From contig CAVLCA010000012.1 of the NCBI GenBank assembly GCA_963661495.1, forward strand, positions 4,450-68,449: 64,000 bases of DNA, written 5' to 3'. Position 1 is the stretch's first letter, and each line of letters begins with the position of its first letter. Below the pieces are notes generated by a model. It saw only the letters and a program-made list of their open reading frames with translations, made no database searches and was not told the DNA's origin. This document shows, in pieces, positions 28,049 through 50,572 of this stretch. The stretch comes from a bacterium. GTDB taxonomy: Bacteria; Bacillota; Clostridia; Oscillospirales; Acutalibacteraceae. The position numbers and the translations under genes were made by a program.

Positions 28049-28855
28049 CTATTTTTTTATTGAATGCAAAACTTTATAAACCGATTTTGGCAATAATCCA
28101 ACCATTATTGGTCTTAAAGCATATATATAATTCACAGGTGATAAGTTAAGCAATTTAACTGCCTGTACCGTCAGCCTCGCTTCATTAATTCTGTATTTGA
28201 ATTTTCTTCGTGAAAAAGCATTTCTGTCATCTCTCATTTTATAAAGAGGATCTTGAAGATTGTATCCTTTATACCCTTTTGCATACATTCTTATCCATAA
28301 ATCCCAATCCTCAACACGAAGTTTTTTAGGATTAACCTCATATCCGTTTACAGCTTCATATGCTTCTCTCCTCACCATACACGGAGCATGACAAAAAGGA
28401 GTTCCTTTTGCAAGAGTTGAAACTTTCGGTTCCCCATTGCCCTGACAAGCCCTAAAATCACCATTCTCATCAAAATATATCATCGGTGTACTAACTATCG
28501 CATATTCCGGATGCTCGTCCAAAAAAGATACCTCTTTTTCAAATCTTAATGGAAGTGATATATCATCCCCGTCCATTCGTGCTATATAAGCACCTTTTGA
28601 ATATTTAAGACAATGATTCAAAGTATAATTAAGTCCCATATTCTTCTCATTTTCAATCAGAACAATTCTATTTGGATACTCATCCTTATACTGCTTTGCG
28701 ATTTCAAAAGTGTTATCCGTTGAGCCGTCATTACACATTATAATTTCAAAATTTTTATATGTTTGTGCCAACAATGAATCAAGGCTTTCTGCCAAAGTAT
28801 CAGCACAATTATATATACCCATAATTACAGAAACTAATGGTTGAGAATTTAACAT
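28049..28855 (-). CDS. Family-2 glycosyltransferase
   Basis: VSVIMGIYNCADTLAESLDSLLAQTY..FEIIMCNDGSTDNT...DGDD. Confidence 0.9.
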   Translation of the reverse strand: MLNSQPLVSVIMGIYNCADTLAESLDSLLAQTYKNFEIIMCNDGSTDNTFEIAKQYKDEYPNRIVLIENEKNMGLNYTLNHCLKYSKGAYIARMDGDDISLPLRFEKEVSFLDEHPEYAIVSTPMIYFDENGDFRACQGNGEPKVSTLAKGTPFCHAPCMVRREAYEAVNGYEVNPKKLRVEDWDLWIRMYAKGYKGYNLQDPLYKMRDDRNAFSRRKFKYRINEARLTVQAVKLLNLSPVNYIYALRPIMVGLLPKSVYKVLHSIKK

Positions 28856-28857
28856 TA

Positions 28858-29994: not shown

Positions 29995-30602
29995 TTGATT
30001 CTCCTTACAGGTACGCCTGCATATGTACCGCTTTCAGTTATATCTTTCACTATCACCGAACCGACCCCAAACACACAATCCGATGCAATGTTCAGTACCT
30101 GTTTTGTGCAAGAACCTGCTCCGATATGTGTTGATTTGCCAACTTTAACAGTTCCGGCAAGAACACAATTCGGTGACAGATGAACAAAATCATCCAAAAC
30201 ATTATCGTGTTCAACTATCGCCCCGGTATTGATAATACAATGCTTGCCGATTTTTGCACACGGATTAACAACCGCATTAGCCATAACAACCGTTCCTTCG
30301 CCGATTTCAACGCCCAAAGATGAAACTACGGCATTCGGATGAATCGCTGTGTACCACTTAACAGGCAAATCAGAAATTTTTTCTCGTATATACGGATTTC
30401 CAACTGCAATCACAAACTCGCAATCTAAAAAATTCTTATAATCGGCTGTTACGCCTAAAACCGGAATCTCGGCAACACTTTTCCCTTGCAAATCCGCCTC
30501 ATCGTCTAAAAAGCCCTTTACCTTGTCACCTGACGATAAAACAACATCGGCAATAACTTTTCCGTGGCCACCTGCACCGATTACGATAACATTTTTAGGC
30601 AT
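29991..30602 (-). CDS. Hexapeptide-repeat sugar N-acetyltransferase (NeuD/PglD/EpsM-like)
   Basis: MPKNVIVIGAGGHGKVIADV... followed by left-handed beta-helix repeats. The ORF-track start at 30674 is GTG inside the upstream gene; ATG at 30602 gives an 8-nt overlap with its stop. Confidence 0.85.
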   Translation of the reverse strand: MPKNVIVIGAGGHGKVIADVVLSSGDKVKGFLDDEADLQGKSVAEIPVLGVTADYKNFLDCEFVIAVGNPYIREKISDLPVKWYTAIHPNAVVSSLGVEIGEGTVVMANAVVNPCAKIGKHCIINTGAIVEHDNVLDDFVHLSPNCVLAGTVKVGKSTHIGAGSCTKQVLNIASDCVFGVGSVIVKDITESGTYAGVPVRRIK

Positions 30603-34165: not shown

Positions 34166-35023
34166 TTATTGCTCATTATTATTTTGAACTCTTTTGAGCA
34201 TATCGCGGAGAAGAGCATTTCTGTCTGCCGGCGGTGTTGAATTTTGTACAGGAGCGGTTGAAACAGGTTCTTCTTTAATCTGCTGTGCAATCGGCTGAGC
34301 CGGTGTCGGTGCCGGTTGACTGTCAATCGGAGCCTCGGCCTTCTTTTCCTCAACAACCGCCGTTTCGGCAGGTGTGGAAGCCAAAACCGGTTCGGCAACT
34401 TTTTCTGTAGTCTTAACAGTTTGAGATTTTTCATTTGTTGAAAACGAATCGAAAAACTCTTTATATTCTTCAGCAACGGCATTTGCCTTGTTTGCATTTT
34501 CGGTTTTGATATTTTGAATATCGTCCATTGATTCGGCAACGAGTATTGCTTTTTTAATCATAGCGTCTGTGTTGGCAGACACAGCGTTAATTTCTTTTGT
34601 AAGATTTGCAAGAAGTGCCTTAACATCAGTATTAATAAGATTGTATGCACTGATCGCCTTTTGTGCCTCTGCCTTTGCCTGTGCCGAAACGCTTTCGATT
34701 TTTTGCAAAAATTCCTGTGAACCGGCCTTTGCGTCATCGGTAATTTTAGCTCCGCTTTCATACGCCGAATAAAAAATCTGACCGATACTTGAAATATAGT
34801 CGCTATTCGATTCTTCGCTTTCTTCAAGCTTTTTTTCCAATTCCGCAACACGGTTTTTAAGCTTTGCAGCTTCGTTTTGATACTTATCAACCTTGAGTGC
34901 GTTATGCTCTGCAAGGTCAAGTGCCTTTTTCAATGTTTCGTTTTCACTTTCAAGCTTTGCTAAGTATTCGTCAACCGACTTTTTATTATATCCGCCCATA
35001 AAAGACGACTTAAATTCTGCCAT
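34166..35023 (-). CDS. DivIVA-domain coiled-coil protein
   Basis: N-terminus FKSSFMGGYNKKSVDEYL followed by heptad-rich sequence; Pro/Ala-rich C-terminus. Confidence 0.7.
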   Translation of the reverse strand: MAEFKSSFMGGYNKKSVDEYLAKLESENETLKKALDLAEHNALKVDKYQNEAAKLKNRVAELEKKLEESEESNSDYISSIGQIFYSAYESGAKITDDAKAGSQEFLQKIESVSAQAKAEAQKAISAYNLINTDVKALLANLTKEINAVSANTDAMIKKAILVAESMDDIQNIKTENANKANAVAEEYKEFFDSFSTNEKSQTVKTTEKVAEPVLASTPAETAVVEEKKAEAPIDSQPAPTPAQPIAQQIKEEPVSTAPVQNSTPPADRNALLRDMLKRVQNNNEQ

Positions 35024-35151: not shown

Positions 35152-37371
35152 TTACTTTTCGGTTTTTGTGTACTGCTTGAGGTGCTTTTGAAGAACATAA
35201 TAACCCGGTTTTAATCTTTCGTGATAAGTTGGAGTGTTCCACGAATCGTAATTATATTTACCGTCAATTTTTATTTGACCCGAAGTGTCTTTTGATGAAC
35301 CCAAGCCAAACGAAAATTCTTCATATGCAGTCGGAGAAATGCTTTGTGTTTTGTAAAAATCGTTTATCTGCTGTTTTGAAGACGGGTCCATAACATTGAG
35401 AAGTTGCCACGGAAGTCTGATTTCTATTTTGCCGTTTTTGTAGCAAAAATCGGTAAGTGATGTATAATCGTCCGAATCCGGATTTGCATTGCCGTACTGC
35501 AATTTACCCGTTTCGTAAACAAGGTCTTTAACCTCTTGATTTGTATGCGGAACAGTAAGATGATAACCGTAGCACATACGCATTTCATTAAATACGCCGC
35601 TGTTTTTGACATTTGAATTTTTGTCAATAGCCATATCGGCAAGTGTGCCGGAGCGTATAAAATAATAGTAAAACGCATCATAATAGCGGTCAACATATAT
35701 ATGCGAATTTTTTGCACCGTTAATCATTACAAGAAAATCTGCGCCCTTGTCAAATTTCAAATTATATTTGCTTGCCGTTGTGTTGCCTTGAGAAGCAATA
35801 GTATCAATCGGGATATAAATTGTGTCGGTGTTAAAATCGTACTTTGAAGTGTCGGTATCAACCATAAGATAAAGATAGCGTTCATCCGATTTTACATACA
35901 GTTTTCCGTAATCTGTTGTGCAAACGGGCTCCTGACCTTTCCATTCGGACACATCGCCGTCAACATAACAAACGGACTGCGTATCTCCCGGGTCAAACGC
36001 AAGCAAGCCAAAGCATTGCTCTGTTGTTTGAATATTTGACCAAAACGGTCGTCTGTCGGCAACATCGAACATAACATTGTTCCAGGTTCTCTTAAACCAT
36101 TCGTCCTGCCAAGTAAAGACAATACCGCCGGCATATTTTTGCTCGTAAATCTTATCAAACAAAGAGGAAAGAATTTGTCCCTGCTTAGTTTCGTCAATTC
36201 GTCCCTGGTCGTAATTCATAACGCTTTTATGCCCCAAACCTCTTGAAGTAGGCACGCCGAATTCCGCAACCATAATCGGCATTGTGTGAGCAAGTTTTAA
36301 GTCGGCAAGATAAGCACTGTATGTGTCAACATTGCCTTCATCGTCATAATTATTCAAATAATCCGTTTGATAATTAAGACTGTCCGGATAATACGGATAA
36401 ATGTGATACGAAGCAAACATTCCCGGTTTAAAGTTATCTCTCGATTTTACATTTTCAACATTAACCGTAACCTTGTCCTCGTCATAATGAGGCTCGTTCG
36501 GGTGAGTGAGCGGGTCGGTTGTAATCCAGTTTGAAAAAGCAAGCGTCGATTGAAATTTGTAATCCTCCGCCTCTTTTTTTATTACAGCGTCGCCAACCTC
36601 ACAGAGAAATGCCTCAAACGGAGTTGCCGCCTGTGTATAAAGATATTCGCCGTCATAAGTTGCTTTGTCGGCGTGCTGTTCATTTGTATTGAGTACCAAA
36701 TTCGGGTCCCACTCAATACCTAAAATCCAACCGCCGAACCAGTGTGAAACATCCGCCGTGTATGTACCGGAAGCCTCACCTGCCGTTTCGGGCAAAGTAA
36801 TGTTGCCGTGAATAACATCAACAAGGTTAAGTGCATCTTCTTTAAAGCCTTCAAGGATTTTACCGTTTTCGGCATAAACATCCGAAAGGCGTGAAATATC
36901 CTCTTCGTTTACCCATACGCCCTGGAAAAGATAAAGCGGATTTTCGGCAGTTTTGTTGTATGTTGCAAGTGCCGTGTAAAACTGCGGTCGCATCGTGGTA
37001 TAAACACGGATACAGTTGCAGTTCATCTCGCCTATATATTTAAACCATCTAAGATAGGTTTCGTACGAAATTGTAAGTTCTCCCGGGAAAATACCCGGCT
37101 CGCCGGCACCGATATTAACACCTGCCCAGAAAACCTCGTTCCACTCGCCGTTTTCGTATATTTGAAAATAATCGCCCTCCGTCTTTACCCGATAGGAAAC
37201 ACCCGTTTCATCGTCGGTAAAGACTTCTTTTTTATTGGAAGCTTCACTGTCTTTACTGTCTGAAAACGGACTTGAAATACCGTGAATACCGAAAGGCTGA
37301 AGAACTCCCGTTTGTGCAAGAACGAGAAAAACCATTAATGTTGCAACAATGGGAATAACATATTTTTTCAT
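35152..37371 (-). CDS. Secreted or anchored 739-aa protein of the EPS-synthase operon; possible TIM-barrel glycoside hydrolase/transglycosylase-like domain
   Basis: N-terminal hydrophobic anchor. NCIRVYTTMRPQFY, HPNEPH and MVAEFGVPT motifs. The C-terminal module is shared with 39910..43068. Start overlaps the GT2 stop (TAATG). Confidence 0.85.
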   Translation of the reverse strand: MKKYVIPIVATLMVFLVLAQTGVLQPFGIHGISSPFSDSKDSEASNKKEVFTDDETGVSYRVKTEGDYFQIYENGEWNEVFWAGVNIGAGEPGIFPGELTISYETYLRWFKYIGEMNCNCIRVYTTMRPQFYTALATYNKTAENPLYLFQGVWVNEEDISRLSDVYAENGKILEGFKEDALNLVDVIHGNITLPETAGEASGTYTADVSHWFGGWILGIEWDPNLVLNTNEQHADKATYDGEYLYTQAATPFEAFLCEVGDAVIKKEAEDYKFQSTLAFSNWITTDPLTHPNEPHYDEDKVTVNVENVKSRDNFKPGMFASYHIYPYYPDSLNYQTDYLNNYDDEGNVDTYSAYLADLKLAHTMPIMVAEFGVPTSRGLGHKSVMNYDQGRIDETKQGQILSSLFDKIYEQKYAGGIVFTWQDEWFKRTWNNVMFDVADRRPFWSNIQTTEQCFGLLAFDPGDTQSVCYVDGDVSEWKGQEPVCTTDYGKLYVKSDERYLYLMVDTDTSKYDFNTDTIYIPIDTIASQGNTTASKYNLKFDKGADFLVMINGAKNSHIYVDRYYDAFYYYFIRSGTLADMAIDKNSNVKNSGVFNEMRMCYGYHLTVPHTNQEVKDLVYETGKLQYGNANPDSDDYTSLTDFCYKNGKIEIRLPWQLLNVMDPSSKQQINDFYKTQSISPTAYEEFSFGLGSSKDTSGQIKIDGKYNYDSWNTPTYHERLKPGYYVLQKHLKQYTKTEK

Positions 37372-38783
37372 TATTCGTCAAATTCCTTTCGTTCGATTTT
37401 GCCCCAAGTTTGGCGGAGTTTACGGTATTTGAGTATGCCCTCAACTCGGAAAAGCGTGATAAGCTGACGGTAGCCGAAATTTTCAAGTATGGCATAAACC
37501 GAAATTTGAATGTACTGCTTTGCCGTCATTGCCGATTTTTTGGTATACTGCTCCAAAATAAGACTGCCGATAGACAACATAATACCGAGAAGCGTTGCAA
37601 GCAAAAAGTATATTACAAAAAAGAATATATTAAGCTCGCCCATAAGCAGTGAAAACGGAATAAGAAAATATCCGATAACCTCAATACACGCACCGAGGAG
37701 TTCAAAAATCCAGTTGTACGGCACGGCAAGCAAGCCGACTGCACCGTAACGCGGATTTAAAAACAGTTTTTTATGAGAAAGAAGCGTATCAAGAAGACCG
37801 ATTTGCCATCTTCTGCGTTGACCTCTGATATCTTTAAGTTGCATAGGTCCCTGCGTCCAGCACACGGAATCTTCACAAAAAATAATCTTATACTTACGCC
37901 TGTTTTTACGCATATATTCGTGGAGACGAACAACGATTTCCATATCCTCACCGATGGTGTTTGTTTTATATCCGCCGACTTCAATAACCGCCTGCTTTTG
38001 GAACACGCCGAATGCACCCGACACGATGAGCATTGAATTTGAAAGACCCCAACTTACCCTGCCCGATAAAAACGAACGGTAATATTCCACAATTTGGAAA
38101 CGCTCAATGAGCTTTTTCGGCATAGAAAAACTTTCAAACACACCGTCACGGATAATCGAGCCGTTTGCGATACGCACGATACCTCCGGCAACGATTGTAT
38201 TCTTATTCTTGTTAAACTCAATTGCAAGTTTCAAAAGAGCATCTTTTTCAAGACGGGAGTCCGCGTCAAGGCAGGCAAAAAGCGGATATGACGAAGCGTT
38301 TATACCGGCATTGAGTGCGTCCGATTTACCGCCGTTCGCCTTGTCGATATAAATCAACTGCGGATATTTTACATTGTAGTAAACGCCCCTTACCTCTTTT
38401 GTCGGAATGGAAATCTTTTGAGAAGTTTCGATTTGATAAAGGTCAAACGCCTTGATGATTTTGTCGTGCGTGCGGTCGGTTGAACCGTCGTTTACAACAA
38501 CAATCTCAAAATTTGGATAATCCATTTTCATAAGCGACTTGATGTTTTGTACAACATTTTCTTCCTCATTGTATGCGGGAATAAGCAAAGAAATCGGCAG
38601 AAGATTATCCGAATACATATACCGCTCGTAATCGTTTGAACGCATTTCTTTTGAATCTCTGCGTACCTTAATCAAAGACAATACCATTTGTGCAATATAT
38701 ATCAAGCTGAGGAGCAGAGTGAACGCCATACAAAAGTAGTTGAAGAACTTAATTACAGCTCTTATATAGGTCATAATATCCAT
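37371..38783 (-). CDS. Processive membrane-embedded family-2 glycosyltransferase (PgaC/IcaA/BcsA-type polysaccharide synthase)
   Basis: N-terminal span; LLIPAYNEEENV...VVVNDGSTDRT; DADS; GEDMEIV; QRRRWQIG (Q-x-x-R-W). Several C-terminal spans. Confidence 0.9.
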   Translation of the reverse strand: MDIMTYIRAVIKFFNYFCMAFTLLLSLIYIAQMVLSLIKVRRDSKEMRSNDYERYMYSDNLLPISLLIPAYNEEENVVQNIKSLMKMDYPNFEIVVVNDGSTDRTHDKIIKAFDLYQIETSQKISIPTKEVRGVYYNVKYPQLIYIDKANGGKSDALNAGINASSYPLFACLDADSRLEKDALLKLAIEFNKNKNTIVAGGIVRIANGSIIRDGVFESFSMPKKLIERFQIVEYYRSFLSGRVSWGLSNSMLIVSGAFGVFQKQAVIEVGGYKTNTIGEDMEIVVRLHEYMRKNRRKYKIIFCEDSVCWTQGPMQLKDIRGQRRRWQIGLLDTLLSHKKLFLNPRYGAVGLLAVPYNWIFELLGACIEVIGYFLIPFSLLMGELNIFFFVIYFLLATLLGIMLSIGSLILEQYTKKSAMTAKQYIQISVYAILENFGYRQLITLFRVEGILKYRKLRQTWGKIERKEFDE

Positions 38784-38788
38784 AGCGT

Positions 38789-39868
38789 CTACCCCCTCAT
38801 ATCAATTTCTCTGTAAAGTGAATTCTTAACCGCATCGGCGGCATATCGGTCGTAGCCTTTCATAATCTCGTCTATATCCTTGATTTTAACCGACATATTA
38901 AGAAGTGCCGAAGCCGCAACCTGACGAACCCACCACTCTTTGTCTTTCGTGGCGATTTTAACGGCGTCAACGGATTCTCTCGTTTGAAAAGCGGCAAGCC
39001 CTTTAATAGCGGCAATACGCACAACCCAATTTTTATCCTTTGCCGCAACGATAAGCGCGTGCTCGTATTCAAGGTTTTTAAGTCCCGAAAGTGCCTTGAC
39101 GCAAGCAATTTTCATATCCTCGTTTGTACTTGTAACGCCTGCATAATAAATATCGGCAAAATCACTCAAACCGTATGAAGCAACCGCCGTAATAATAGTT
39201 GCTTTCATACTCTCGTTGCAATTTTTAAGAACAAGTGCAACCAACTCGGTTAAATCCCCGCCGTAACACGCAATAATTTCATATACCACTCGGGTTGATA
39301 ATTTTTTATCGTCTTCAAGGCTGACAATGTACTTTGCCACACGCTCGCAATCACCGAATACAGACAACGCCATAGCCGCATTGTACGCGATTGTGCGGTT
39401 TTTGTCGGTTACAAGTTTGCCTATATCGTTGACATAATCAACCGCACTAAAATCGGCAAGACGGCGGCACGCATAACATTTATCGTGCCAACTTCCGTCC
39501 TTGAGAAGTTTTGCGTAAATTTCAATCGGCTTTAGCGTATTGTCAATGTCAACAAAAATATTCTCTCTTGATTTTGTGAAATCATCGGCTTGATTTTTCC
39601 ATTTATTCACTTCTTCATACACGGTGTCAAGAATTTCACAGTCACCGTTCACAAGGTCGCTCAGCGATTTAAGCTCACTTTCTCTTGAACGGTGGGTCGG
39701 GCTGAACATAATTCCCTCCACTATCTTTTTTGCCTTTTTTCGTGCCGCAGAATATTTATTTGTATGTTTTTCCTGCTTAACTGCAAGAATGTAGAGCCAC
39801 AAATATTCAATCGCAAGCAGAAATAAGCAAATGATAATACCTATTACCGCTAAAAGTTCGTATGTCAA
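38789..39868 (-). CDS. Membrane-anchored HEAT-repeat protein
   Basis: N-terminal span, then repeats of the type DKNWVVRIAAIKGLA / DKEWWVRQVAASALL. Confidence 0.8.
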   Translation of the reverse strand: MTYELLAVIGIIICLFLLAIEYLWLYILAVKQEKHTNKYSAARKKAKKIVEGIMFSPTHRSRESELKSLSDLVNGDCEILDTVYEEVNKWKNQADDFTKSRENIFVDIDNTLKPIEIYAKLLKDGSWHDKCYACRRLADFSAVDYVNDIGKLVTDKNRTIAYNAAMALSVFGDCERVAKYIVSLEDDKKLSTRVVYEIIACYGGDLTELVALVLKNCNESMKATIITAVASYGLSDFADIYYAGVTSTNEDMKIACVKALSGLKNLEYEHALIVAAKDKNWVVRIAAIKGLAAFQTRESVDAVKIATKDKEWWVRQVAASALLNMSVKIKDIDEIMKGYDRYAADAVKNSLYREIDMRG

Positions 39869-39909
39869 AATCTCACCGCCTTTCGGATATATCTTTCAAA
39901 TATCTAATG

Positions 39910-42900
39910 TTATTTTATAGTTTTAAAGTATTTTTTCAGAGTGCCGAATCCGTCTTTTTCACGGTACTCAAAATCCACAGTTTCCCAACTGTTCCACTTG
40001 AAAGTTTTGTAGCCCGGATCCTGTTTTGATTCAGGGAACATATAAAGAAGGTCCTTTGTGCTCTTATCGGCAATCATAAGCGAAATCAAAAAGCCGTTTG
40101 TCTGCGTTGTTTTTGCCTGTGAGCCGAGTTTACCCGGATTGTTGATAACAATCTTTTGCGTCGGGTCGGTCACATTAAGAAGTGCCCACGGAATACGGAT
40201 ATATGTTGTTGTACCCGTTGAGTAATATTGATTGTCGCCCGAACGGAAACCGCCGTATTTGAGAGTTGCAACAAGACTGTACTTACCTGTATAGCTTTCC
40301 TTTGAAGAATAGTTGCCCTCACTTTTGTCATACGATTTTACAACATAAAGCTTCGCATTTTGTTTGCTTGAAAAATGTATAACAAATTCCATACCCGAAA
40401 GAGCGGTAGGCGTATACTTTGAAGCGTAGTAATATTCACCGTCGTTACGCTGATAAGTGTCAATGCCGACGAAGAAATCTTCTTTTGAATAATCTACCTC
40501 TTCAAGCATTCTTACATTAATATAAAGATAGCTTTCATTTGCCGAAACGGACATACCCTGCATTCTGTCATCATCGGTGTATTCCAAATCCGTGTTTTCC
40601 GGCGTTTTGGAATCAAGCGACACGATACCGGTCGTTTGAGCACTGTCGGCAACATTATGCCACAAATAATTATTAAGAAGCGGCACTGTAAACGGATACA
40701 TTTTACTCGAAACGGCAGACCAATTGTCGTTGAGGTCGGATATAACCGCACCCATAGTGTTTGCACCCGATACGGCATTAAGTCCGGCAATGAGTTTGCT
40801 TGCCTGTTCTGCCTCGCTGTTACCTCCGATGTTTGACGAAATGCTTATTGAGCTTACAAGAAGCGGAGCCTTAACGGCTGTCAAAAGGTCGCTGAGGTAT
40901 TTAGAAAATCCGTCGCCGTATGTGTTGCCGTAGCGTTTTGCGTTTTGAGCAAACACACCCTTGTCAAGCTCGCCGTTTACGGAGAGGAAGAAATACGGCT
41001 TTGACTTTTCGTTTGCCGAAATAACGGTTGACATATCGTATTTTGTGTCACCCTTTGCAAGCGAATAGTCGGCAACCGAATTTGAGTCAATCTGTACGCC
41101 GACAGGGATTTTGTAGCCGTAAGATTTGACATTTTTACTTTCGGCAATATCGCAAAGTTTTGCGGCAAACGCCTCAACAGGAGCATTTGCACTGAAATAC
41201 TTGCCGGTATAGGTGAATCCGTTTGAGCTGTTTTTAATCGCCTTGGCGTTGGCGGAAGTCAAATTTGCGTCAATCAAAACTCCGAGTACATAAGGTGAAA
41301 CATCGTTAAAATAGGAAGTGGCGTTAAGATTGGTTGTAGCCTTTGTCGAGCCGTCGCCGTGGAGTGCTTTGATAACTGTTTCAATCGCTTTTTTCCACTG
41401 CTTTTGACCGTCCTCGGTTAAATATTTATCCGCAGAAAGTCCCTCGGGAGCGGTTACCGTTTGAATTATGTAAATCTTATTATCGCTGTTATCAACATTA
41501 TTTTGATAAATCGCACGGTAAAACTCAGCCGGCATAAGACCTTTTGCTCTTACGCAATTTGCACCTATTTCATTCATTTCCTCAACAAGATTCTGATAGT
41601 AAGTGTAGTCGCGGGTGTACTTTGTTTCGCCCGGCTTGTTTGCGTTTATACTAAAGGCTTTCAGGTTAAATTCTTTGAATTTTTTGCCGTCGAGAACCTC
41701 AAATTTGCCGTTGTTTACTCGGGCAACTTCGGTAGAGTTTTTGCTTTCCTGTGCTCCTTTTTTGTGACGGTCGCCGTTTTCGGCTTTACAGTCCTTGAGG
41801 ATTTTCGTCATAAGCGGATTGTAAAACTTCCAATAAAAGCACGAAATGTCGCCCAAATTATCATAAGACAAAAACTTGAAAAACTTGTCTGCACCCAAGA
41901 ATTTATTGATATTCTTTTTGCTGACATAATCGTTAAAGTCACCGGCAAAATAGTATGCCGCCGGCTTATTTTTTACTTTTTTTCGGGTAATGGCAACAAA
42001 TCTCGGTGTGTTTGAAATTTCTGCCATTTTCTCCATACCTGTTGCATTTACATCAAATTCGAATGTGGCAAATGCCTCGGCGTCTGCATTAGCTTCAATC
42101 AATTCAAACCAATTATAAAAGTTGGTTTTTTTACAGCCCTTAAATTCCTTTTTATAATCCTCGTTCAAATAGATTTTGAGTAGGTTTTTGGAATCGAAGT
42201 CTGTTTTTTGCTCCAAGACAATGATTTTACCCTCTTTTGACACAAGCAATATTCCCGATCCGGTAAACTGCCACTCAACGCCCGACTGCTGTTCATAAAG
42301 TTCAGGTGCCCAATCGGGAACATCGGTGAAGTCCTGCAAATCATAAATATATCTGCCGACCCATCCTGTTTCGCTTATGCCGAAAAGCGACTGAAGCTGT
42401 GCGGTAACAGAAGCGGTCATATTTGAGTTAAAAAGTTCCATTTCACCGATAACTGTTGCATTATTTTCGTAAGCATAAGACACAACGGACATATCGTCGG
42501 CGTTGAAGCCCGAACCTTTGGCGTCGTCATCGTTAAAATATCCGTAAGTGTCGTTTGTCGCACCGTAAACATCGGAAATATACATCAAATCAGGCACATA
42601 ATCAAGCGTGGTAAGCTCTTTCATTTCGGTAGTCGTTCCGTCCTCTTTGAGGTGCTGACCGAAATAATCGTTTGTGTAATCGTATGCACTACCGTCCTGA
42701 AAAACGATTTTCTTTTGATTCAAAAGCCAAAAAAGTCCCTCGTGCTTTCTGTAAGCAAGCTCGTTATCAACATCGTTATCTTCTTCGGCAACAAGCACCG
42801 TTTTATCAAGCACGCAAACATTAAGGTAGGTTTTTGCCTTAATCTGCCAGCCGACAAAAGCAATAATTATTATCAAAAGCAAAATCATCGGAACTATAAA

Positions 42901-43068
42901 GTACCACTTGAAAAACCATTTTTGTTTTATCTTTTTAGTTTCCTGTTTTGTTTGCTCCGCACGGTCTTTTTCGGGATCAAATGTGTTTTCGTCCACCTGC
43001 GGTGCAACATAAGTGTTTGGATTTGAGGCTTCGTTAAGTTCTGCCCCGTTAAGCTTTTCTTCACTCAT
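39910..43068 (-). CDS. 1052-aa single-span ectoprotein of the EPS-synthase operon
   Basis: About 50-aa cytoplasmic N-terminus and span FKWYFIVPMILLLIIIIAFVGW. ANCVRAKGLMPAEFY segment. C-terminal module IRIPWALLNVTDP shared with 35152..37371. Confidence 0.85.
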   Translation of the reverse strand: MSEEKLNGAELNEASNPNTYVAPQVDENTFDPEKDRAEQTKQETKKIKQKWFFKWYFIVPMILLLIIIIAFVGWQIKAKTYLNVCVLDKTVLVAEEDNDVDNELAYRKHEGLFWLLNQKKIVFQDGSAYDYTNDYFGQHLKEDGTTTEMKELTTLDYVPDLMYISDVYGATNDTYGYFNDDDAKGSGFNADDMSVVSYAYENNATVIGEMELFNSNMTASVTAQLQSLFGISETGWVGRYIYDLQDFTDVPDWAPELYEQQSGVEWQFTGSGILLVSKEGKIIVLEQKTDFDSKNLLKIYLNEDYKKEFKGCKKTNFYNWFELIEANADAEAFATFEFDVNATGMEKMAEISNTPRFVAITRKKVKNKPAAYYFAGDFNDYVSKKNINKFLGADKFFKFLSYDNLGDISCFYWKFYNPLMTKILKDCKAENGDRHKKGAQESKNSTEVARVNNGKFEVLDGKKFKEFNLKAFSINANKPGETKYTRDYTYYQNLVEEMNEIGANCVRAKGLMPAEFYRAIYQNNVDNSDNKIYIIQTVTAPEGLSADKYLTEDGQKQWKKAIETVIKALHGDGSTKATTNLNATSYFNDVSPYVLGVLIDANLTSANAKAIKNSSNGFTYTGKYFSANAPVEAFAAKLCDIAESKNVKSYGYKIPVGVQIDSNSVADYSLAKGDTKYDMSTVISANEKSKPYFFLSVNGELDKGVFAQNAKRYGNTYGDGFSKYLSDLLTAVKAPLLVSSISISSNIGGNSEAEQASKLIAGLNAVSGANTMGAVISDLNDNWSAVSSKMYPFTVPLLNNYLWHNVADSAQTTGIVSLDSKTPENTDLEYTDDDRMQGMSVSANESYLYINVRMLEEVDYSKEDFFVGIDTYQRNDGEYYYASKYTPTALSGMEFVIHFSSKQNAKLYVVKSYDKSEGNYSSKESYTGKYSLVATLKYGGFRSGDNQYYSTGTTTYIRIPWALLNVTDPTQKIVINNPGKLGSQAKTTQTNGFLISLMIADKSTKDLLYMFPESKQDPGYKTFKWNSWETVDFEYREKDGFGTLKKYFKTIK

Positions 43069-45317
43069 TATGCTTCACCGCCTTTTTTGAGTTCGCAAAT
43101 CAAATCATAGCTTTTAATAAAAGCGTCAACAACTTTCGGGTCAAATATAGTGCCGCTGTATTCCTTGAGATACGATATGGCACGCTCGTCCGTCCACGCA
43201 TTTTTATACGAACGCACAGAAGTGAGTGCGTCAAACACATCGGCAACAGTTGTAATGCGTGCGGCAAGAGGAATTTCCTCACCCTTTAAACCGTAATATC
43301 CGTTACCGTCAATTTGTTCGTGATGATAATGTGCAATTTGAGCCGCAATGGAAATGAATTCACCGGGAACGCCCGAAAGGAGTTTGCCGCCGAACTCTGC
43401 GTGAGTTTTAACAATACTCTTCTCATCATCCGAAAGAGCCCCCTGATTTCCAAGAATGCTTTCCGGAATGATGATTTTACCTATATCGTGAAGTGCCGAA
43501 GCAAACCCGATTCGCCTTATGTCATCCTGGCTGAGACCCAATTCAGAGCAAATACAAAGCGAAATGGCTGAAACATTTGTAAGGTGGTTCTTTCCGCTTC
43601 CGCTCTTTGTTTCAACAACCTCAGCAAGCCTTGACAAAAAGTCAACCTGAAAATCCTCGTCCTTTTGCTCATCGCCCGTTGTGTTAATAAGAAGCGTAAG
43701 CTGTGCACACAAGACCTCAATTACATTGGAAATTTTGTCGTTGAGCATTTCCTTACTGCCCTCAAAGTGAATAATCGAATGAATATCGTCAAATTTTTTA
43801 AGTACAATATCAAAATAAGTGTCGCCCCAAAAGACATTATTGAGTTCGCTGTAATTTGCATAACGGTAATTAATTAGGTCGTAATTACACTCTTCGTCAA
43901 TATTATCGGAATAAATCTGATTAAATCCGCCCGCCTCGGAATTGCCTATGCACACGCCGACGGTCAACTGCTCGTCTTCGGAAAGTTGAGAATTAAGTAC
44001 TTTTTTAAGTTCCTTTGCCGCAACAACAATTTTTTCGCCGTCGTCCGAAATACTGACAACCTCATCAATAATTTTATTAAGTGCGTCAACCCAAGATGTA
44101 TCTTTTATAAATCTTTCGTATTCTTCCTGTTTTTTCTTGTATTTAAGCGATGACTTGTCAAATCCGACGGCAGTCATAACAACCGTAAACACTGCGTCTG
44201 TCATAAAATTGAACAAAACAAAGTATTTTACATTGCCAAAAAACATTTGAAGCGATAGTATAACGCTTGAAAACACAACAAAATTAAGTGCAAACCAAAC
44301 CGAAAACGAACCTTTGGCACGCCTGCCCATAGCTTGCAAAAATGCCGATTGCGAAAGTACAAGCGACGCCAAAAGAAGTGCCGAGCACACAAGCGGAAGA
44401 ATTCGGGTGACAAGCGGAACATTCGGTATCAGCGAACACAAAGCCGCAACAAACGACAGTGTGATTGTAAATTTAGCACTTTTTTTAAGAGAGCCGAAAG
44501 CGTTAAACGCTATAATTTCGGCAATAACGATACCCACAAGCGACAACGCCTGTGAAATATTTGCATAAATCGGAGCGTTAAGCGTATATGAACTTTGCAA
44601 AAATTCCCACAATCCAACTGAGCCGCCCGAAAGAATATTGTAAAACGCAATATAAAGTATCGGTGAAAAATGCTTATTCTTAATTGAAAAGGCAAGTGAA
44701 ATCAGAAGTATAATTACACCGACGGCAAGCATAACAATCGCAAACACCATACCTTGGTTAACCGGGAATGTGCTCGGTGCCTTGGTTGAAGTGCTCACTT
44801 CAAAGCATACAGAATAAGGCACAGCCATATACACCTCCACAGTTTGCGAAAGTGCTGTTTTTGTGAGCTTTACACTGTTGTAGCTGTTGCCGGTGTAACT
44901 GTCGGTTCCGTAGTGGTTATTGTACACTTCTTCACCGTTTACAAGTATTTTCAAAGGTGAACGGTCGGTTTTTATCGTAAGATATGTATCATCACTGACC
45001 TTTTCAAAGGTGTGACGAAGATAATAATATCCCGTGTTACCCTTTGTAGATATAGGCAAAACATAACTTGACTGACTTAACTCGTCCGTGTTTGGCTTGG
45101 CGTCGGCATTTTTAAGATAGCAATATTCCCACGACTGCACGCTTTTTGTATCGTTTTGCGACACGATAACATAATTTGCCGTGTACTTAACCGCAAACGA
45201 CAGCAAAATCATTGCAATCGCCAAAGCGGAGCCTATAACCAAATTCTGTCTGCCGCCCGACAAAAACTTTTTCAAATTCAATATTAACTTGTTAAACGCA
45301 TGCTTAACTGAATTCAT
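43068..45317 (-). CDS. 7TM-receptor (7TMR-DISM-like) HD-GYP domain protein, putative c-di-GMP phosphodiesterase
   Basis: N-terminal span, about 140-aa ectodomain, seven spans. Then ALHDIGKI...KTHAEFG...HYHHEQIDGNGYYGLKGEEIP...VADVFDALTS. Confidence 0.85.
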   Translation of the reverse strand: MNSVKHAFNKLILNLKKFLSGGRQNLVIGSALAIAMILLSFAVKYTANYVIVSQNDTKSVQSWEYCYLKNADAKPNTDELSQSSYVLPISTKGNTGYYYLRHTFEKVSDDTYLTIKTDRSPLKILVNGEEVYNNHYGTDSYTGNSYNSVKLTKTALSQTVEVYMAVPYSVCFEVSTSTKAPSTFPVNQGMVFAIVMLAVGVIILLISLAFSIKNKHFSPILYIAFYNILSGGSVGLWEFLQSSYTLNAPIYANISQALSLVGIVIAEIIAFNAFGSLKKSAKFTITLSFVAALCSLIPNVPLVTRILPLVCSALLLASLVLSQSAFLQAMGRRAKGSFSVWFALNFVVFSSVILSLQMFFGNVKYFVLFNFMTDAVFTVVMTAVGFDKSSLKYKKKQEEYERFIKDTSWVDALNKIIDEVVSISDDGEKIVVAAKELKKVLNSQLSEDEQLTVGVCIGNSEAGGFNQIYSDNIDEECNYDLINYRYANYSELNNVFWGDTYFDIVLKKFDDIHSIIHFEGSKEMLNDKISNVIEVLCAQLTLLINTTGDEQKDEDFQVDFLSRLAEVVETKSGSGKNHLTNVSAISLCICSELGLSQDDIRRIGFASALHDIGKIIIPESILGNQGALSDDEKSIVKTHAEFGGKLLSGVPGEFISIAAQIAHYHHEQIDGNGYYGLKGEEIPLAARITTVADVFDALTSVRSYKNAWTDERAISYLKEYSGTIFDPKVVDAFIKSYDLICELKKGGEA

Positions 45318-45335: not shown

Positions 45336-45548
45336 TTATTTGTTTATGTTTGAATACTTATTGAGTAATTTTTTAACCTGTTGGTCGTTGTCCACGGTTG
45401 CATCGTCGTTTTCACCGACAAGTTCGTGAAACTCTGCAATGAGCTTTCCGATTTCTTCATACTTATCTTCAATATCGGAAAGAATGTCTACAAGCTTTGA
45501 ATTAACATATTTTAATTCTTCCGCTTCTTTTATGTAATCCTGATTCAT
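45336..45548 (-). CDS. Small acidic hypothetical protein (70 aa)
   Basis: ORF tightly packed between flanking genes (16-18 nt gaps). No recognisable motif. Confidence 0.5.
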   Translation of the reverse strand: MNQDYIKEAEELKYVNSKLVDILSDIEDKYEEIGKLIAEFHELVGENDDATVDNDQQVKKLLNKYSNINK

Positions 45549-45564
45549 AATTTGTCCTTTACAG

Positions 45565-46185
45565 TTATGCTAATTTTGCTATGTACTGCTTGCCGTCCTT
45601 TTGAGTTGTTACGGTAATCGTAGCAGAGCCGGACGAAGTTGTCTTTTTTTCATCCGAGAAAAACGACGCTTCAATCACATACGTTCCGTCGCTTTGAGCG
45701 GTTGACGAAGCAGTATAATATAAATCTCTGCCGTAAAGCGGTTCCCACATTTCAAACTTCTTTTTACCGCTGTTGTACAAATCGGATTTTGTAATATCAA
45801 CATTCAGCTTGCCAAAATCCTTTTGAATTTGAGAGTTAATTTGCTCGGCTGTTGCCTCACGCATTTTAACGCCCTCTCTCGGCATATCCGTGAGATTGTT
45901 ATAATAAAGTCTGCAAAAAGCATATTGCACCAACTTGCTTGTTGATATTTCACTCGGCGAATTAAAGCTGTCAATCGCAAGCAAATATTTCAATTCGTAC
46001 GCACGGTTGGCATAATATTCTTCATCAATAGTTGAGGTGTCGGCAGAAGTTTCTTCCGATGTGTCAACAACATAGTTGTCGTCCTTTTCACTTTTTTGCT
46101 TGACATTTGGGTCAACATTTGAGCAAGCCGCAAAAGCACCCACCATAAAAATAACCGACAGCAAAAACGCAATAGTCTTTTTCAT
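45565..46185 (-). CDS. Lipoprotein, function unknown
   Basis: Lipobox MKKTIAFLLSVIFMVGAFAAC|SN. Confidence 0.75.
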   Translation of the reverse strand: MKKTIAFLLSVIFMVGAFAACSNVDPNVKQKSEKDDNYVVDTSEETSADTSTIDEEYYANRAYELKYLLAIDSFNSPSEISTSKLVQYAFCRLYYNNLTDMPREGVKMREATAEQINSQIQKDFGKLNVDITKSDLYNSGKKKFEMWEPLYGRDLYYTASSTAQSDGTYVIEASFFSDEKKTTSSGSATITVTTQKDGKQYIAKLA

Positions 46186-46281: not shown

Positions 46282-46307
46282 AAAAAAAGGGACCGCAATG
46301 CAGTCCC
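46282..46307 (-). terminator. Probable rho-independent terminator after 46328..47518
   Basis: Minus strand reads GGGAC-(9 nt)-GTCCC followed by TTTTTTT. Confidence 0.5.
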
Positions 46308-46327
46308 TATGCGTATTGAAATTAGTT

Positions 46328-47518
46328 TTAGAAGCCCCAGTTGTAATCTGTGTATGAAATTGTCTTGTCTTCAGCCTGTTCAATGAATACAAAAGCTGTT
46401 TTTACATACTTGAATGAATTGTAAGCGTCTGTAATAATTGTTGAGCCTAAAGGAAGGTTTACAGAAAGGCTTTCTGTAGGAGTGTTTACAACTTTAAGAA
46501 TACCTGTTTGCTTGTCATAGTCTTCGTTGAAGTGGAATCTGTAAGCCATAAAGCACTTGTTTACATCTGTACGGAGAACCGGGTCGCCTTTTGGAAGAAC
46601 AAATGTCTTTGTTGCTTCGTCATAGCTTCTTTCTGTGTAGCTGTTTGAAACCTTAACGGTGTAAACAACTGTACCGGCAATACCGTAGCCGTAATCTGTG
46701 TAAGTGTCTGTATCCCAGTCGTTTGAGCACATCTGGAATTTGTATTCTTTACCGATTTCAAGATTAAGAGTGTCGCCTGTCTTATAAACACTGCCGTCTT
46801 CAAAACGAACAGACATCTTTTTAGGAGTTACAATGCCGAGTTCGATTGACTTTGAATCGTCATCTTCATCGTCTTTCTTGTCGTCCTTTTTGTCATCTTC
46901 TTTTTCAGTTGATTTCCACTGAGCATAAAGAGTGAAAATGTTGATTCCTTTAGGGAAACCGAGGTCTTTTACAACAATTGTGTCGCCCTCTTTGTAAGCT
47001 TTACCCGAACCGTCAGCCTTTGTGTTCCAACCTGTGAATTCATGACCCTCATATGTGAATGAGCTTGCCTTAACTGTAGCTGTGTCCTTTTTGAAGTAGT
47101 GCTGTGGGTCTGTTGTTGAGCCCGATGTTGCACCGTTTCCGTCATAAAGGAAGCTGTAAAACGGAATAATTACGCCGTCAACATGCCAACCTTCGCTTTC
47201 TTGCTTTGTAACATACCAAACAACAGATTGACCGCTTTCAAGTGAAACTTCAGGAGCGGATACGATGTTTGAAACGCCCTCTTCGTTGTACTCGCCGGTG
47301 TAACCGTCTGTAACTGTGATTTTACCGTTGCCTGCTGCCGAATAATTGCTCTTTGGCTGGCTTGCCGTACCTACAGGAACCGGAAGACCCGAGTTCAAAA
47401 GGTAAAACGAAGCGTTAACCGTTTTGCTCGATGCTGCAAATGCACTTACAGGGAACATTGATACGATAAACATAACAAGAATTACTGCCGCAGCAATTTT
47501 TTTCATACTCTTTTTCAT
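46328..47518 (-). CDS. Secreted 396-aa protein with one Listeria-Bacteroides-type (Flg_new) repeat; riboswitch-controlled
   Basis: Signal peptide ...FPVSAFA|AS. FTYEGHEFTGWNTKADGSGKAYKEGDTI...LYAQW. Asp/Lys-rich linker. No membrane anchor. Confidence 0.85.
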   Translation of the reverse strand: MKKSMKKIAAAVILVMFIVSMFPVSAFAASSKTVNASFYLLNSGLPVPVGTASQPKSNYSAAGNGKITVTDGYTGEYNEEGVSNIVSAPEVSLESGQSVVWYVTKQESEGWHVDGVIIPFYSFLYDGNGATSGSTTDPQHYFKKDTATVKASSFTYEGHEFTGWNTKADGSGKAYKEGDTIVVKDLGFPKGINIFTLYAQWKSTEKEDDKKDDKKDDEDDDSKSIELGIVTPKKMSVRFEDGSVYKTGDTLNLEIGKEYKFQMCSNDWDTDTYTDYGYGIAGTVVYTVKVSNSYTERSYDEATKTFVLPKGDPVLRTDVNKCFMAYRFHFNEDYDKQTGILKVVNTPTESLSVNLPLGSTIITDAYNSFKYVKTAFVFIEQAEDKTISYTDYNWGF

Positions 47519-47564: not shown

Positions 47565-47706
47565 TAAAAATAAAAACCGCAAACTGTAAAACAATCTGCG
47601 GTTTGACTACCATAGTAAATACTTTAGGTTCATAACTTTGCGTCCTGCCGTTTCCGACAGTTTGCCAAATATTAACTTAAAAATTTCAGAGATTTCTCTC
47701 GATTGC
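47565..47706 (-). promoter_or_regulatory. Class-I c-di-GMP riboswitch (GEMM-I) with terminator-type expression platform
   Basis: Minus-strand RNA reads UUUGGCAAAC-UGUCG-GAAA-CGGCA-GGACGCAAAG-UUAUGAA-CCUAAAG-UAUUUAC-UAUGGUAG-UCAAACCGCAG. It has the GGCAAAC and GACGCAAAG blocks, a GAAA tetraloop hairpin and the CCUAA(A)G/UAUGG receptor. The hairpin AAACCGCA/UGCGGUUU (47604-47574) plus a U-tract follows. Confidence 0.8.
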
Positions 47707-48130: not shown

Positions 48131-50572
48131 TTACTCACTTCCTTTATTTTGCTCAAATTCCGTAACGATGCGTTTATTATTTATTTTGCCGAAATACAAA
48201 AGCCTGTCGGCATCGTTAATTGCAAGTTCCGTATTTTCTTTGCCGTATTTGCCGCCGATTGTAATTGAAAATCGGTAATTCGGCATTTCCTCAAATTCTA
48301 TTTCACCGACCGCATTAACTAAATTTTGAAGCGTAGCGGTAAACTCGGTCTCGTTAACGCCAACAAATAACAACACAAATTCGTCTCCGCCGTAGCGAAT
48401 CAATTTGTCATTTTGTCCGATATTGGCGGTTATTGCTTTTGCAACGGCAGCAATAGCCTTATCACCGACAATATGACTGTAATTATCGTTAATCGCCTTA
48501 AATCCGTCTATATCAATCATACAAACAGCGGTGACATTTTTCAATTGCTTACCCACATCGTCAAAATAACGACGGTTAAGCGTGTCTGTAAGCGGGTCAC
48601 GGTAAAGCTTACGGTTATAGCTGTTGACATAATTGATAAAATCATTTTTACCGTAAGCGTCAAACAGCAAATCGCTTCTGTTTTGATACACCATTTCAAC
48701 CACTCTCGGATGACCGTCAATTTCCATATATTTGGAAAAGACTTGGTACACGCTGTCGTTCAAAAATTCAAGCTTCGAGTGTGTTTTTTTGGTTTTAAAA
48801 GTTTTGTACGATATGCAGTTTTGGCAACGCTCGTTTCTGCCCCAAATAGAATAACATTTGAGTCTGCCCGTTTTTTGTGCCTTGTCAACATCGCCCTCAA
48901 AAGTTTTGTTGCTTACAATATTCGTTTCAATCGGGTCAACCACACGCACAACATCAAACACTTTTTTGATTTGTTCGGCAAAAACTTCAAACCCGCTGTC
49001 GTTGTAGTTTTTCATATCGATTGTGTCAATACTCTCAAAACTGTTGCTCGGTATAATACGCATAACAACACTTTTACGCTTAAGAACCGTGTCACCCGTC
49101 CACAGCGACATAATCTTAACTTCGCACTTATACTTTTTGCCATCATGTTCAAGATGAGCCGTGCCATTAAAAATCGGAATATTCGGTGTTGTTTGATTAA
49201 TCATATCAATCAGCTTATCGTAGTTGCCGTTTCCCTTACTGAGTTCACGAAAAGTGTGCATATCAATCATTGAGCTGTCAAGATTCAAAAGTCTAACACC
49301 GTAATCCGACACAGTAACCATACCGTAGTCTATATCGTATTCGATTTGAATTTCCTTTATGCCGTTTGAAAAAAACTTACGCTTCGCATTTTCAAAAAAC
49401 AAAAGATATTTCTTATCGTCCTCATTGTCATCTTGCGAATTCAGTTTGTCGGCAATGAGTTCTTTTGTAACTCTGAACGCCATGGTATCTTCGCCCGGCA
49501 TATTCTTTCTGCCGTGCACAATCTTGCAAAGGTAGTCAGAACAATCGCTTAAACTGTTCAAAAGCAACGGATTAAAAGCCCCGCATTCGCCGGCAAGTAT
49601 CATTTTAACAGCCGTTTCGTGGTCATAAGCCGACTTGTAACAACGCTCGCTTGTAAGCGCGTCATACACATCTGCCAAAGCGACAACCTGTGCGGAAATA
49701 GGGATTTCTTCGCCTTTCAGCCCGTCCGGATAGCCAAAACCGTCCCACCTTTCGTGGTGCCATCGGCATATTTCATAAGCATATTTATATATCCCGTTTT
49801 CGTTTTTTACTCTTTTGTCAAATCCCGGCATTGCCTTTATCATATCGGAGCCTATTGCCGAATGTTTTTTTATAATTTCAAATTCGTCCGTAGTGAGTCT
49901 GCCCGGCTTATTAAGCACTTTTTCATCTATAGCGATTTTGCCTATATCATGGAGTGCGGAAGCCGTAGATATGAGCATAATTTTTCTGTTCGTCAACTCA
50001 TAACGATCCGTAATTTCGGCAACACGCTCAAGCAAAATGCGTGAAACAGTCTGAACATTATGGATATGAAGATTGCTCTCGCCGTTTCTGAATTCAACAA
50101 TATTGCCCAAAGCATCTATCATCTGACGGCTGTAAATTTCCGTTTCGGCAATTTGCTCTTCAACCATACCCATAAGTTGCTTTTGTTTTCTGTAAAGTGC
50201 AAGCGTGTTTTTTATACGGTTATGAATAGTCGCACTATTGTACGGTCGTTTAATATAATCCACAACCCCGATTTTATACGCTTCTTCCAAAAACATTTCA
50301 TCATTCGATGAAATAACAATAACAGGAACGGTTGTAAGCCAACCTCGTTCTTTCATAACACGGAGTGTCTTAAAGCCGTCCATAACAGGCATAACAAGGT
50401 CGAGCACCACAAGCTCTATTTCATCAAGATTTTCGGAAATAACAGAAACCGCCTCACAACCGTTGGCAGCTTGCAAAATCTCATATTCATCACTCAAAAG
50501 TTCCGCTAAAATCATTCTGTTGATTTGCGAATTATCAGCTATCAATATTTTTTGCTTGTCCATCGTGCTCAT
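48131..50572 (-). CDS. Response-regulator receiver + HD-GYP + Cys-motif linker domain + GGDEF protein
   Basis: REC: ILIADNS...LVVLDLVMPVMDG...DYIKRP. HD-GYP: ALHDIGKI...WHHERWDGFGYPDGLKGEEIP. GGDEF: LNRRYFDD...IDIDGFKAINDNYSHIVGD...RYGGDEFVLL. Confidence 0.9.
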   Translation of the reverse strand: MSTMDKQKILIADNSQINRMILAELLSDEYEILQAANGCEAVSVISENLDEIELVVLDLVMPVMDGFKTLRVMKERGWLTTVPVIVISSNDEMFLEEAYKIGVVDYIKRPYNSATIHNRIKNTLALYRKQKQLMGMVEEQIAETEIYSRQMIDALGNIVEFRNGESNLHIHNVQTVSRILLERVAEITDRYELTNRKIMLISTASALHDIGKIAIDEKVLNKPGRLTTDEFEIIKKHSAIGSDMIKAMPGFDKRVKNENGIYKYAYEICRWHHERWDGFGYPDGLKGEEIPISAQVVALADVYDALTSERCYKSAYDHETAVKMILAGECGAFNPLLLNSLSDCSDYLCKIVHGRKNMPGEDTMAFRVTKELIADKLNSQDDNEDDKKYLLFFENAKRKFFSNGIKEIQIEYDIDYGMVTVSDYGVRLLNLDSSMIDMHTFRELSKGNGNYDKLIDMINQTTPNIPIFNGTAHLEHDGKKYKCEVKIMSLWTGDTVLKRKSVVMRIIPSNSFESIDTIDMKNYNDSGFEVFAEQIKKVFDVVRVVDPIETNIVSNKTFEGDVDKAQKTGRLKCYSIWGRNERCQNCISYKTFKTKKTHSKLEFLNDSVYQVFSKYMEIDGHPRVVEMVYQNRSDLLFDAYGKNDFINYVNSYNRKLYRDPLTDTLNRRYFDDVGKQLKNVTAVCMIDIDGFKAINDNYSHIVGDKAIAAVAKAITANIGQNDKLIRYGGDEFVLLFVGVNETEFTATLQNLVNAVGEIEFEEMPNYRFSITIGGKYGKENTELAINDADRLLYFGKINNKRIVTEFEQNKGSE

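Follow-up and report, generated by a model that had tools for sequence, protein, structure and literature searches.

What does a bacterium build with a compact operon that combines a processive-type glycosyltransferase with a HEAT-repeat protein, two large surface proteins, and a membrane sensor carrying an HD-GYP domain? This question is raised by a locus of a member of the Acutalibacteraceae (contig CAVLCA010000012.1, GCA_963661495.1), which we analyzed within a window of 64,000 nucleotides (nt) covering contig positions 4,450-68,449; coordinates given below without a locus name are those of the window, where every gene and the riboswitch discussed lie on the minus strand. An original prediction had described five translationally coupled genes of a synthase-dependent exopolysaccharide (EPS) operon, and all five open reading frames are present on the minus strand between 35152 and 45317. 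The unit is, however, larger, since a lipoprotein gene and a gene for a 70-amino-acid (aa) protein precede the HD-GYP gene, giving seven genes in the order lipoprotein, 70-aa protein, HD-GYP sensor, 1052-aa ectoprotein, HEAT-repeat protein, family 2 glycosyltransferase (GT2), and 739-aa ectoprotein. We consider it probable, from the sequence and its relatives, that these seven genes encode a synthase-dependent glycan secretion machine of a type widespread among Firmicutes, linked to cyclic di-GMP (c-di-GMP) and equipped with its own feedback phosphodiesterase.

Domains were assigned by Pfam and NCBIfam searches, with relaxed thresholds for those parts that had no match, and the membrane topology of the operon products was read from Kyte-Doolittle hydropathy scans. 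The host genome (2.18 Mb, 99% complete) was surveyed as a whole. For comparison, 80 loci from named Firmicutes genomes were retrieved with a tight alignment of the ectoprotein family as query, and neighbors were counted within 10 kb; distribution across the phylum was estimated from an even sample of 401 genomes, and riboswitches in relatives were sought by whole-genome searches.

The catalytic center of the operon is the 470-aa GT2 (P0004; 37371..38783), which matches Pfam Glycos_transf_2 (E 1.5e-25) as well as Glyco_trans_2_3 and Chitin_synth_2 (E 1.6e-7). The LDADS, GEDMEIV, and QRRRW motifs that had been claimed for it can all be read in the sequence, and the predicted membrane spans (10-38 and 359-404) flank the catalytic domain, as had also been proposed; motifs and flanking spans together place the protein among the processive GT2 synthases of the BcsA/PgaC/chitin-synthase type. 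When it was compared with the PDB by sequence, BcsA was the only full-length match (E 2e-5). The best NCBIfam match is PgaC_IcaA (E 2.4e-38), and this match, together with the QRRRW motif, the similarity to Chitin_synth_2, and the annotation of a Clostridium perfringens counterpart as 'chitin synthase' (PMC2879425), could be taken to indicate a divergent poly-N-acetylglucosamine (PNAG) system of the pga/ica type, or a chitin-like one, in which the product is a polymer of N-acetylglucosamine and the ectoproteins replace the glycosidase domain of PgaB. Such a system would be expected to look different in several respects: the PgaC_IcaA match reaches 132 bits against an equivalog cut-off of 422 bits, neither a carbohydrate esterase family 4 (CE4) deacetylase nor a PgaD/IcaD-like protein occurs in the operon or recurs in the 80 loci, and the barrel of the ectoproteins resembles clan GH-A and glycoside hydrolase family 157 (GH157), with no match to PgaB. 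We regard a PNAG or chitin-like system as unlikely.

Directly upstream of the GT2 gene lies the gene for the HEAT-repeat protein (P0003; 359 aa, 38789..39868, with a TTG start), identified by Pfam HEAT_2 (E 1e-19). The protein is membrane-anchored, as the original prediction had it, through a single N-terminal span (residues 5-23), and because this span precedes a basic stretch, the HEAT domain is placed in the cytoplasm. Synteny and gene fusions, set out below, identify it as the predicted core cytoplasmic partner of the synthase. Its earlier nomination as a candidate c-di-GMP receptor finds no support here: conservation analysis revealed no recognizable nucleotide-binding motif, the conserved positions belonging mostly to the repeat consensus (W281, R284, D309, W312, R315, and D340), and the protein also occurs at loci without any c-di-GMP gene within 10 kb.

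Of the two ectoproteins, the 1052-aa protein (39910..43068) is a type-II anchored protein consisting of a conserved alpha/beta N-domain (residues ~78-430), a GH-A-like barrel, and beta-sandwich domains; its single span (residues 55-73), already noted in the original prediction, comes after a basic tail, so the bulk of the protein lies outside the cell. The 739-aa protein (P0005; 35152..37371), secreted or anchored, combines a GH-A-like (beta/alpha)8 barrel with a C-terminal beta-sandwich. Neither matched any Pfam or NCBIfam model, relaxed thresholds included, and the two are paralogs (23% identity over ~700 residues, E 6e-27) within a family of 1619 clusters at 50% identity. Foldseek comparison of both proteins had been suggested beforehand, and it finds a GH157-like GH-A barrel in each. 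The AlphaFold2 model of the 739-aa protein (predicted local distance difference test, pLDDT, 94.4) has as its top PDB match the GH157 endo-beta-1,3-glucanase LaGH157 (E 6e-13), followed by members of GH2, GH5, GH17, and GH72, all at 9-15% identity. LaGH157 was also recovered at the sequence level with a profile of the ectoprotein family (E 5.5e-4 over ~110 residues), and in that alignment E370 of the 739-aa protein (in AEFG) stands opposite E224 of LaGH157, the residue mutated in PDB entry 9g4n. In the model, E220 (in GIEW) follows the beta4 strand (212-217) and E370 is situated in the beta7 strand (366-371). With its barrel, a Glu after beta4, and a Glu on beta7, the modeled 739-aa protein has the features that define clan GH-A.

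The 1052-aa paralog shares this fold and lacks the presumptive catalytic pair. Its AlphaFold2 model (pLDDT 85.9) likewise has GH157 as top Foldseek match (E 6e-9) and shows the fold of clan GH-A, with both Glu absent. Orthologs of the 739-aa protein retain both residues, as do a third paralog that most relatives possess and the one long protein that Bacillaceae have. Of the 1052-aa orthologs, those of the Ruminococcaceae type have without exception lost both; Paenibacillus retains the second only. Because both catalytic Glu are lost, we take the 1052-aa barrel to be dead. Searches of the PDB by sequence with single ectoproteins returned nothing useful, and a profile of the 1052-aa N-domain alone returned nothing; the fold of this N-domain is left without assignment because the barrel dominates Foldseek on the whole model. 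The 1052-aa protein is likely a non-catalytic subunit that binds or guides glycan, and the 739-aa protein probably acts on the polymer as a glycanase or transglycosylase.

A further member of the family is found elsewhere in the host genome. This orphan, a lipoprotein of 726 aa encoded on contig C4 (L081:8121-10301, minus strand), is paralogous to the 739-aa ectoprotein and has GLEW and AEFG intact. It adjoins a 1642-aa protein with Big_2 and dockerin domains, has no GT2 or HEAT gene nearby, and resembles the third paralog that relatives carry at the end of the operon.

How far these parts belong together can be judged from the 80 related loci, in which a GT2 homolog occurs within 10 kb of the ectoprotein at 68 loci and the HEAT protein, by clustering, at 55; beyond these two, no accessory family is present in more than 13. 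The hosts comprise Ruminococcaceae and Eubacteriales metagenome-assembled genomes (MAGs), Paenibacillus, Cohnella, Clostridium, Desulfosporosinus, Heliophilum, Thermobrachium, many Bacillaceae, Izemoplasmatales, and Acholeplasmataceae. The ectoprotein family is patchily distributed and was found in 26 of the 401 sampled genomes (~6%). Every pairwise combination of the three proteins also occurs as a single polypeptide: GT2 with ectoprotein (P0266), ectoprotein with HEAT (P0131, P0137, and P0145), and HEAT with GT2 (Heliophilum L025, Izemoplasmatales L044, and Clostridium grantii L072). Adjacent in the window and fused elsewhere, GT2, HEAT, and GH-A-like ectoprotein thus form one module. The suggestion that this might be a new combination of accessory proteins stands insofar as the set is unlike that of known systems, but it is not peculiar to one genome, since it recurs across Firmicutes.

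The same survey bears on whether the ectoproteins might instead be nutrient-acquisition glycanases, with dietary beta-glucans as one possible target, and only happen to be encoded next to an unrelated glycosyltransferase. GH157 enzymes are beta-1,3-glucanases (PDB titles), the orphan copy of the host adjoins a dockerin-bearing protein, and 12 of the 80 loci have no nearby GT2, all of which would fit such a role. It is difficult to reconcile with a GT2 at the remaining 68 loci, with the covalent fusions of ectoprotein to GT2 and to HEAT, with the retention of one paralog despite consistent loss of both catalytic Glu, and with the finding that no transporter or regulator of the utilization-locus type recurs in the 80 loci. 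We consider nutrient acquisition highly improbable and favor a biosynthetic role within the glycan secretion machine.

How is the machine connected to c-di-GMP? The third gene of the operon encodes a 749-aa membrane sensor with a cytoplasmic HD-GYP domain (P0001; 43068..45317), recognized as Pfam HD_5 (E 9e-33) at the C-terminus. The seven transmembrane spans proposed for it are borne out approximately, and they are preceded by one N-terminal span and an outside domain of ~145 aa. In an alignment of 14 operon-type orthologs, the metal ligands (H, HD, H, HHE, D) are all kept, and the Pro of the GYP motif is absent from all 14 through a one-residue deletion (residues ~690-702) that leaves GY-, GN-, GS-, GT-, or GK-; the window protein reads HHEQIDGNGY-YG (GYY) against the consensus HHExxDGxGYP. 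The protein is likely, as predicted from its domain, a c-di-GMP phosphodiesterase. Alternatively, it may have given up phosphodiesterase activity, a change of role reflected in the altered GYP loop, and may gate the synthase through protein contact as the c-di-GMP receptor or trigger. The clade-wide absence of the Pro would suit such a receptor, as would the translational coupling of its gene to that of the 1052-aa subunit and a genome without PilZ or degenerate GGDEF receptors, but conservation of every metal-ligand position favors catalysis, and we judge the receptor role to be quite unlikely. Because other lineages have a cyclase or nothing in its place, the HD-GYP protein is not counted as part of the conserved machine.

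The remaining c-di-GMP components of the host are concentrated around the operon. A protein of 813 aa (48131..50572) combines REC, HD-GYP, and GGDEF domains (Pfam Response_reg, HD_5, and GGDEF) with canonical HHERWDGFGYP and GGDEF motifs, and a c-di-GMP-I riboswitch aptamer is located at 47594..47676 (Rfam RF01051, 66.8 bits, E 6.6e-11), ~1.4 kb upstream of the operon and outside the stretch covered by the original prediction. The genome as a whole contains two GGDEF proteins, two HD-GYP proteins, no EAL, no PilZ, and this single copy of the riboswitch; both HD-GYP domains lie in the window, and only one membrane GGDEF protein lies outside the island. That protein (370 aa, ~six spans; contig C13, L082:3138-4250, minus strand) retains its GGDEF motif intact, lacks an RxxD site, and is likely, judged by these motifs, the second cyclase of a minimal c-di-GMP network. 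As a candidate for a degenerate receptor of the YdaK/PssE kind it was ruled out on the same two features.

Two negative statements of the original prediction hold on the scale of the genome: no operon product contains PilZ by Pfam and PF07238 is absent from the whole 99%-complete genome, and there is no degenerate GGDEF receptor, both GGDEF proteins of the genome having intact motifs. Its further statement that no c-di-GMP receptor could be named applies to a protein receptor, but for the clade an RNA receptor can be identified in the c-di-GMP-I riboswitch. A terminator-like hairpin (47604-47574) shares sequence with the 3' end of the aptamer, and these predicted structures point to an ON switch. 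In the relatives L015, L016, L018, and L019, a c-di-GMP-I riboswitch stands directly before the lipoprotein gene, the first of the operon, and the 5' arm of a terminator overlaps the 3' end of the aptamer as expected of an ON switch. In the window, the first gene past the riboswitch encodes instead a secreted 396-aa protein (46328..47518) with a signal peptide and a Listeria-Bacteroides repeat (Flg_new, E 4e-7). This gene is linked to the operon in relatives as well; in others of them it separates riboswitch and operon as it does here, with gaps as short as 34-49 nt and without a terminator.

Two relatives carry the Flg_new gene downstream of the operon, with a second c-di-GMP-I riboswitch of its own (L016, 14413-14500; L017, 14095-14206), so that adhesin-like gene and EPS operon are each under separate riboswitch control there.

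Outside the Ruminococcaceae type, the place of the HD-GYP gene is taken by that of a REC-GGDEF-REC cyclase (Bacillaceae, Thermobrachium, Tenericutes, and Heliophilum). The c-di-GMP link of the module is thus recurrent and takes three forms, namely an operon HD-GYP protein in the Ruminococcaceae type, an operon cyclase, and a riboswitch with terminator before the first gene. In the Bacillaceae operon, the REC-GGDEF-REC cyclase, which matches Hpt weakly, is accompanied by a HAMP-GAF-PAS hybrid kinase and a receiver protein of one domain; the corresponding place in a Tenericutes MAG is occupied by an ODP(diiron)-GGDEF-REC protein. These arrangements were seen at L049:4799-15351, L031:12018-13520, and L039:15988-17967.

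In the mechanism that we propose for the machine, the GT2 would use a housekeeping UDP-sugar to build a beta-linked polymer, which it would pass through its own membrane channel, as expected from its family. The HEAT solenoid, an apparently obligate partner of the synthase by synteny and fusions, could act as scaffold or regulator. On the outside, the dead 1052-aa paralog may hold or guide the nascent chain in a BcsB-like manner, and the 739-aa paralog may trim, release, or cross-link it (cf. BcsZ, PgaB-C, and PssZ). High c-di-GMP would turn transcription on through the riboswitch and its overlapping terminator, an arrangement seen in four relatives, and the HD-GYP sensor of the operon would then degrade c-di-GMP, thereby providing local negative feedback.

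Several observations weigh against this interpretation. The altered GYP motif weakens the phosphodiesterase assignment. The GT2 scores under every NCBIfam cut-off. The similarity to GH157 is distant (10-14% identity, template-modeling (TM) score 0.33-0.46) and indicates clan and fold, not substrate. At 12 of the 80 loci the ectoprotein has no GT2 nearby, and the host genome has its orphan copy; therefore, the ectoprotein family can act outside the machine. In the window itself, the riboswitch-led gene and the operon are kept apart by a promoter-like site and a good terminator (46308-46288), so that any riboswitch control of this operon would depend on read-through or else has been lost. Finally, our literature searches found no functional study of any family member. 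Even with these points, a c-di-GMP-linked glycan secretion machine remains the reading that we prefer.

A bolder version of this proposal would regard GT2, anchored HEAT protein, and the GH-A-like ectoproteins, whose N-domain is optional and some of whose paralogs are catalytically dead, as a distinct class of machine beside Bcs, Pga, Pel, and Alg, making an undescribed polymer, with the HEAT solenoid as an allosteric gate and possibly a new c-di-GMP-binding module; we offer it tentatively, as a possibility that we hold at somewhat less than even. To our knowledge, only a handful of types of synthase-dependent polysaccharide systems are known, and the Gram-positive ones are the least understood, although such systems are central to biofilm biology. 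The module described here has no name, its main surface protein has no Pfam model, and we found no functional study of it in the literature, yet it reaches from gut Ruminococcaceae to soil Bacillaceae, Paenibacillus, clostridia, and the wall-less Izemoplasmatales. A link to disease is possible, as by annotation the module lies within NELoc-2 of C. perfringens. The minimal circuit of the host (two cyclases, two HD-GYP proteins, one riboswitch, and neither PilZ nor EAL) also offers a clean case for the control of a polysaccharide machine by c-di-GMP without the usual receptors.

The layout of the operon and its borders can be summarized as follows. Coupling by overlap is real at 43068 and 37371, where stop and start share one base (TAATG); the translational coupling proposed for all five genes is strict at these two junctions, but the other two are gaps of 41 and 5 nt. 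The first gene encodes a 206-aa lipoprotein (45565..46185; lipobox AFAAC) whose fold is without assignment; phmmer found its homologs in 13 of the 80 loci, each of these 13 being of Ruminococcaceae type. The second encodes a helical protein of 70 aa (45336..45548) with the C-terminal motif LL(K/N)KYS, for which phmmer found homologs in 5 loci, with further loci recognized by position. Both genes are kept in related operons, and the gaps to their neighbors here are 16 and 18 nt. Across these loci, a helical protein of 60-75 aa without known family keeps its place between the lipoprotein and HD-GYP genes, and LL(K/N)KYS looks invariant. The lipoprotein, the 70-aa protein, and the sensor half of the HD-GYP protein gave only noise in Pfam and NCBIfam at relaxed thresholds.

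At the 5' border, 142 nt separate the end of the Flg_new gene from the operon. They include an intrinsic-terminator-like hairpin with a 9-bp stem followed by T7 (46288..46308) and, just after it, a promoter-like site (46284-46256). Hairpin and promoter-like site together set the EPS operon off from the Flg_new gene, as a boundary or as an attenuator. At the 3' border, a 128-nt gap with a promoter-like site precedes a separate unit, a coiled-coil gene of 285 aa (34166-35023) that is weakly DivIVA-like (E 0.006) and has a strong terminator at its end. In Heliophilum, a GGDEF-REC-DivIVA fusion (L025:5426-7636, minus strand) adjoins the HEAT-GT2-ectoprotein fusion. These DivIVA-like neighbors hint at a link to polar or septal localization. 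Elsewhere in the window, a low-GC block (~16000-30000; 27-33% versus ~40% outside it) coincides with a dense upstream cluster of polysaccharide genes and was possibly acquired horizontally.

How, then, does the operon compare with systems already characterized? The original prediction that the gene set matches neither bcs, pga/ica, nor pel is upheld and extends to yda/pss, as the accessory proteins of those systems are absent, and literature searches for a characterized system with these parts returned nothing relevant. The host genome as a whole contains no BcsB, DUF2334, PilZ, or EAL, whereas the B. subtilis genome, used as a control for the BcsB and DUF2334 searches, has both. With Bcs, the operon shares a logic of GT2 channel, non-catalytic outer partner, and trimming glycanase; unlike Bcs, it belongs to a genome without PilZ (PF07238) and BcsB (PF03170), and its products include no GH8. 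PgaABCD/IcaADBC systems are similar in their PgaC/IcaA-like processive GT2, their extracytoplasmic glycosidase-like domain that acts on the product, and their activation by c-di-GMP, known for PgaCD. They differ in that the GT2 described here lies under the equivalog cut-off (TIGR03937), has a HEAT partner, and is accompanied by a GH-A-like barrel, with no PgaD/IcaD, no PgaA, and no CE4 deacetylase, the last being absent from the operon products by Pfam and from the recurrent neighbor families of the 80 loci. Components of Pel (PelF of family GT4, PelD, PelG, and a PelA-type hydrolase/deacetylase) were not among the Pfam matches of the seven products.

The Yda and Pss systems place a BcsB-like protein, a DUF2334 protein, a GH8 hydrolase, and a degenerate-GGDEF receptor beside a GT2. 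The original prediction had been reminded of ydaJKLMN and pssA-E, and YdaJKLMN and PssA-E with PssZ do resemble the present operon as Gram-positive, c-di-GMP-linked units that combine a GT2 of the synthase type with a glycosidase and with extracytoplasmic partners anchored in the membrane. This likeness holds in outline only, because BcsB, DUF2334, PilZ, and EAL are absent from the genome and the GT2 is far under the PgaC/IcaA cut-off; a degenerate GGDEF is likewise missing from the genome and GH8 from the operon products, and the proposed control point here is RNA plus HD-GYP.

At the level of single proteins, LaGH157 (PDB 9g4n, 9fz9, and 9g5g) is the top fold match of both ectoproteins, with the weak profile match that pairs E370 with E224. 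At 10-14% identity, and with ectoproteins that add C-terminal beta-sandwich domains, a membrane anchor, and a biosynthetic context, its substrate is not transferable. Compared to the HD-GYP phosphodiesterases of the RpfG and PmGH type, the sensor has the same HD_5 domain and the full set of metal ligands, but the GYP Pro is deleted clade-wide and the input is a multi-span sensor, not REC.

The closest described thing is found in C. perfringens, where the disease-associated locus NELoc-2 includes CP4_0466-0468, genes whose products are a hypothetical protein (685 aa), a HEAT-repeat protein (377 aa), and a GT2 (466 aa) under the name 'chitin synthase' (PMC2879425, Lepp et al., 2010); that paper did not assay their function. 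These three genes are without the HD-GYP gene, the lipoprotein gene, and the long dead paralog of the window operon. Compared by annotation, length, and order only, they show the arrangement ectoprotein - HEAT - GT2 of the Clostridium-type loci L026, L028, L036, and L037, and it is through this published table that the NELoc-2 genes are matched to the module.

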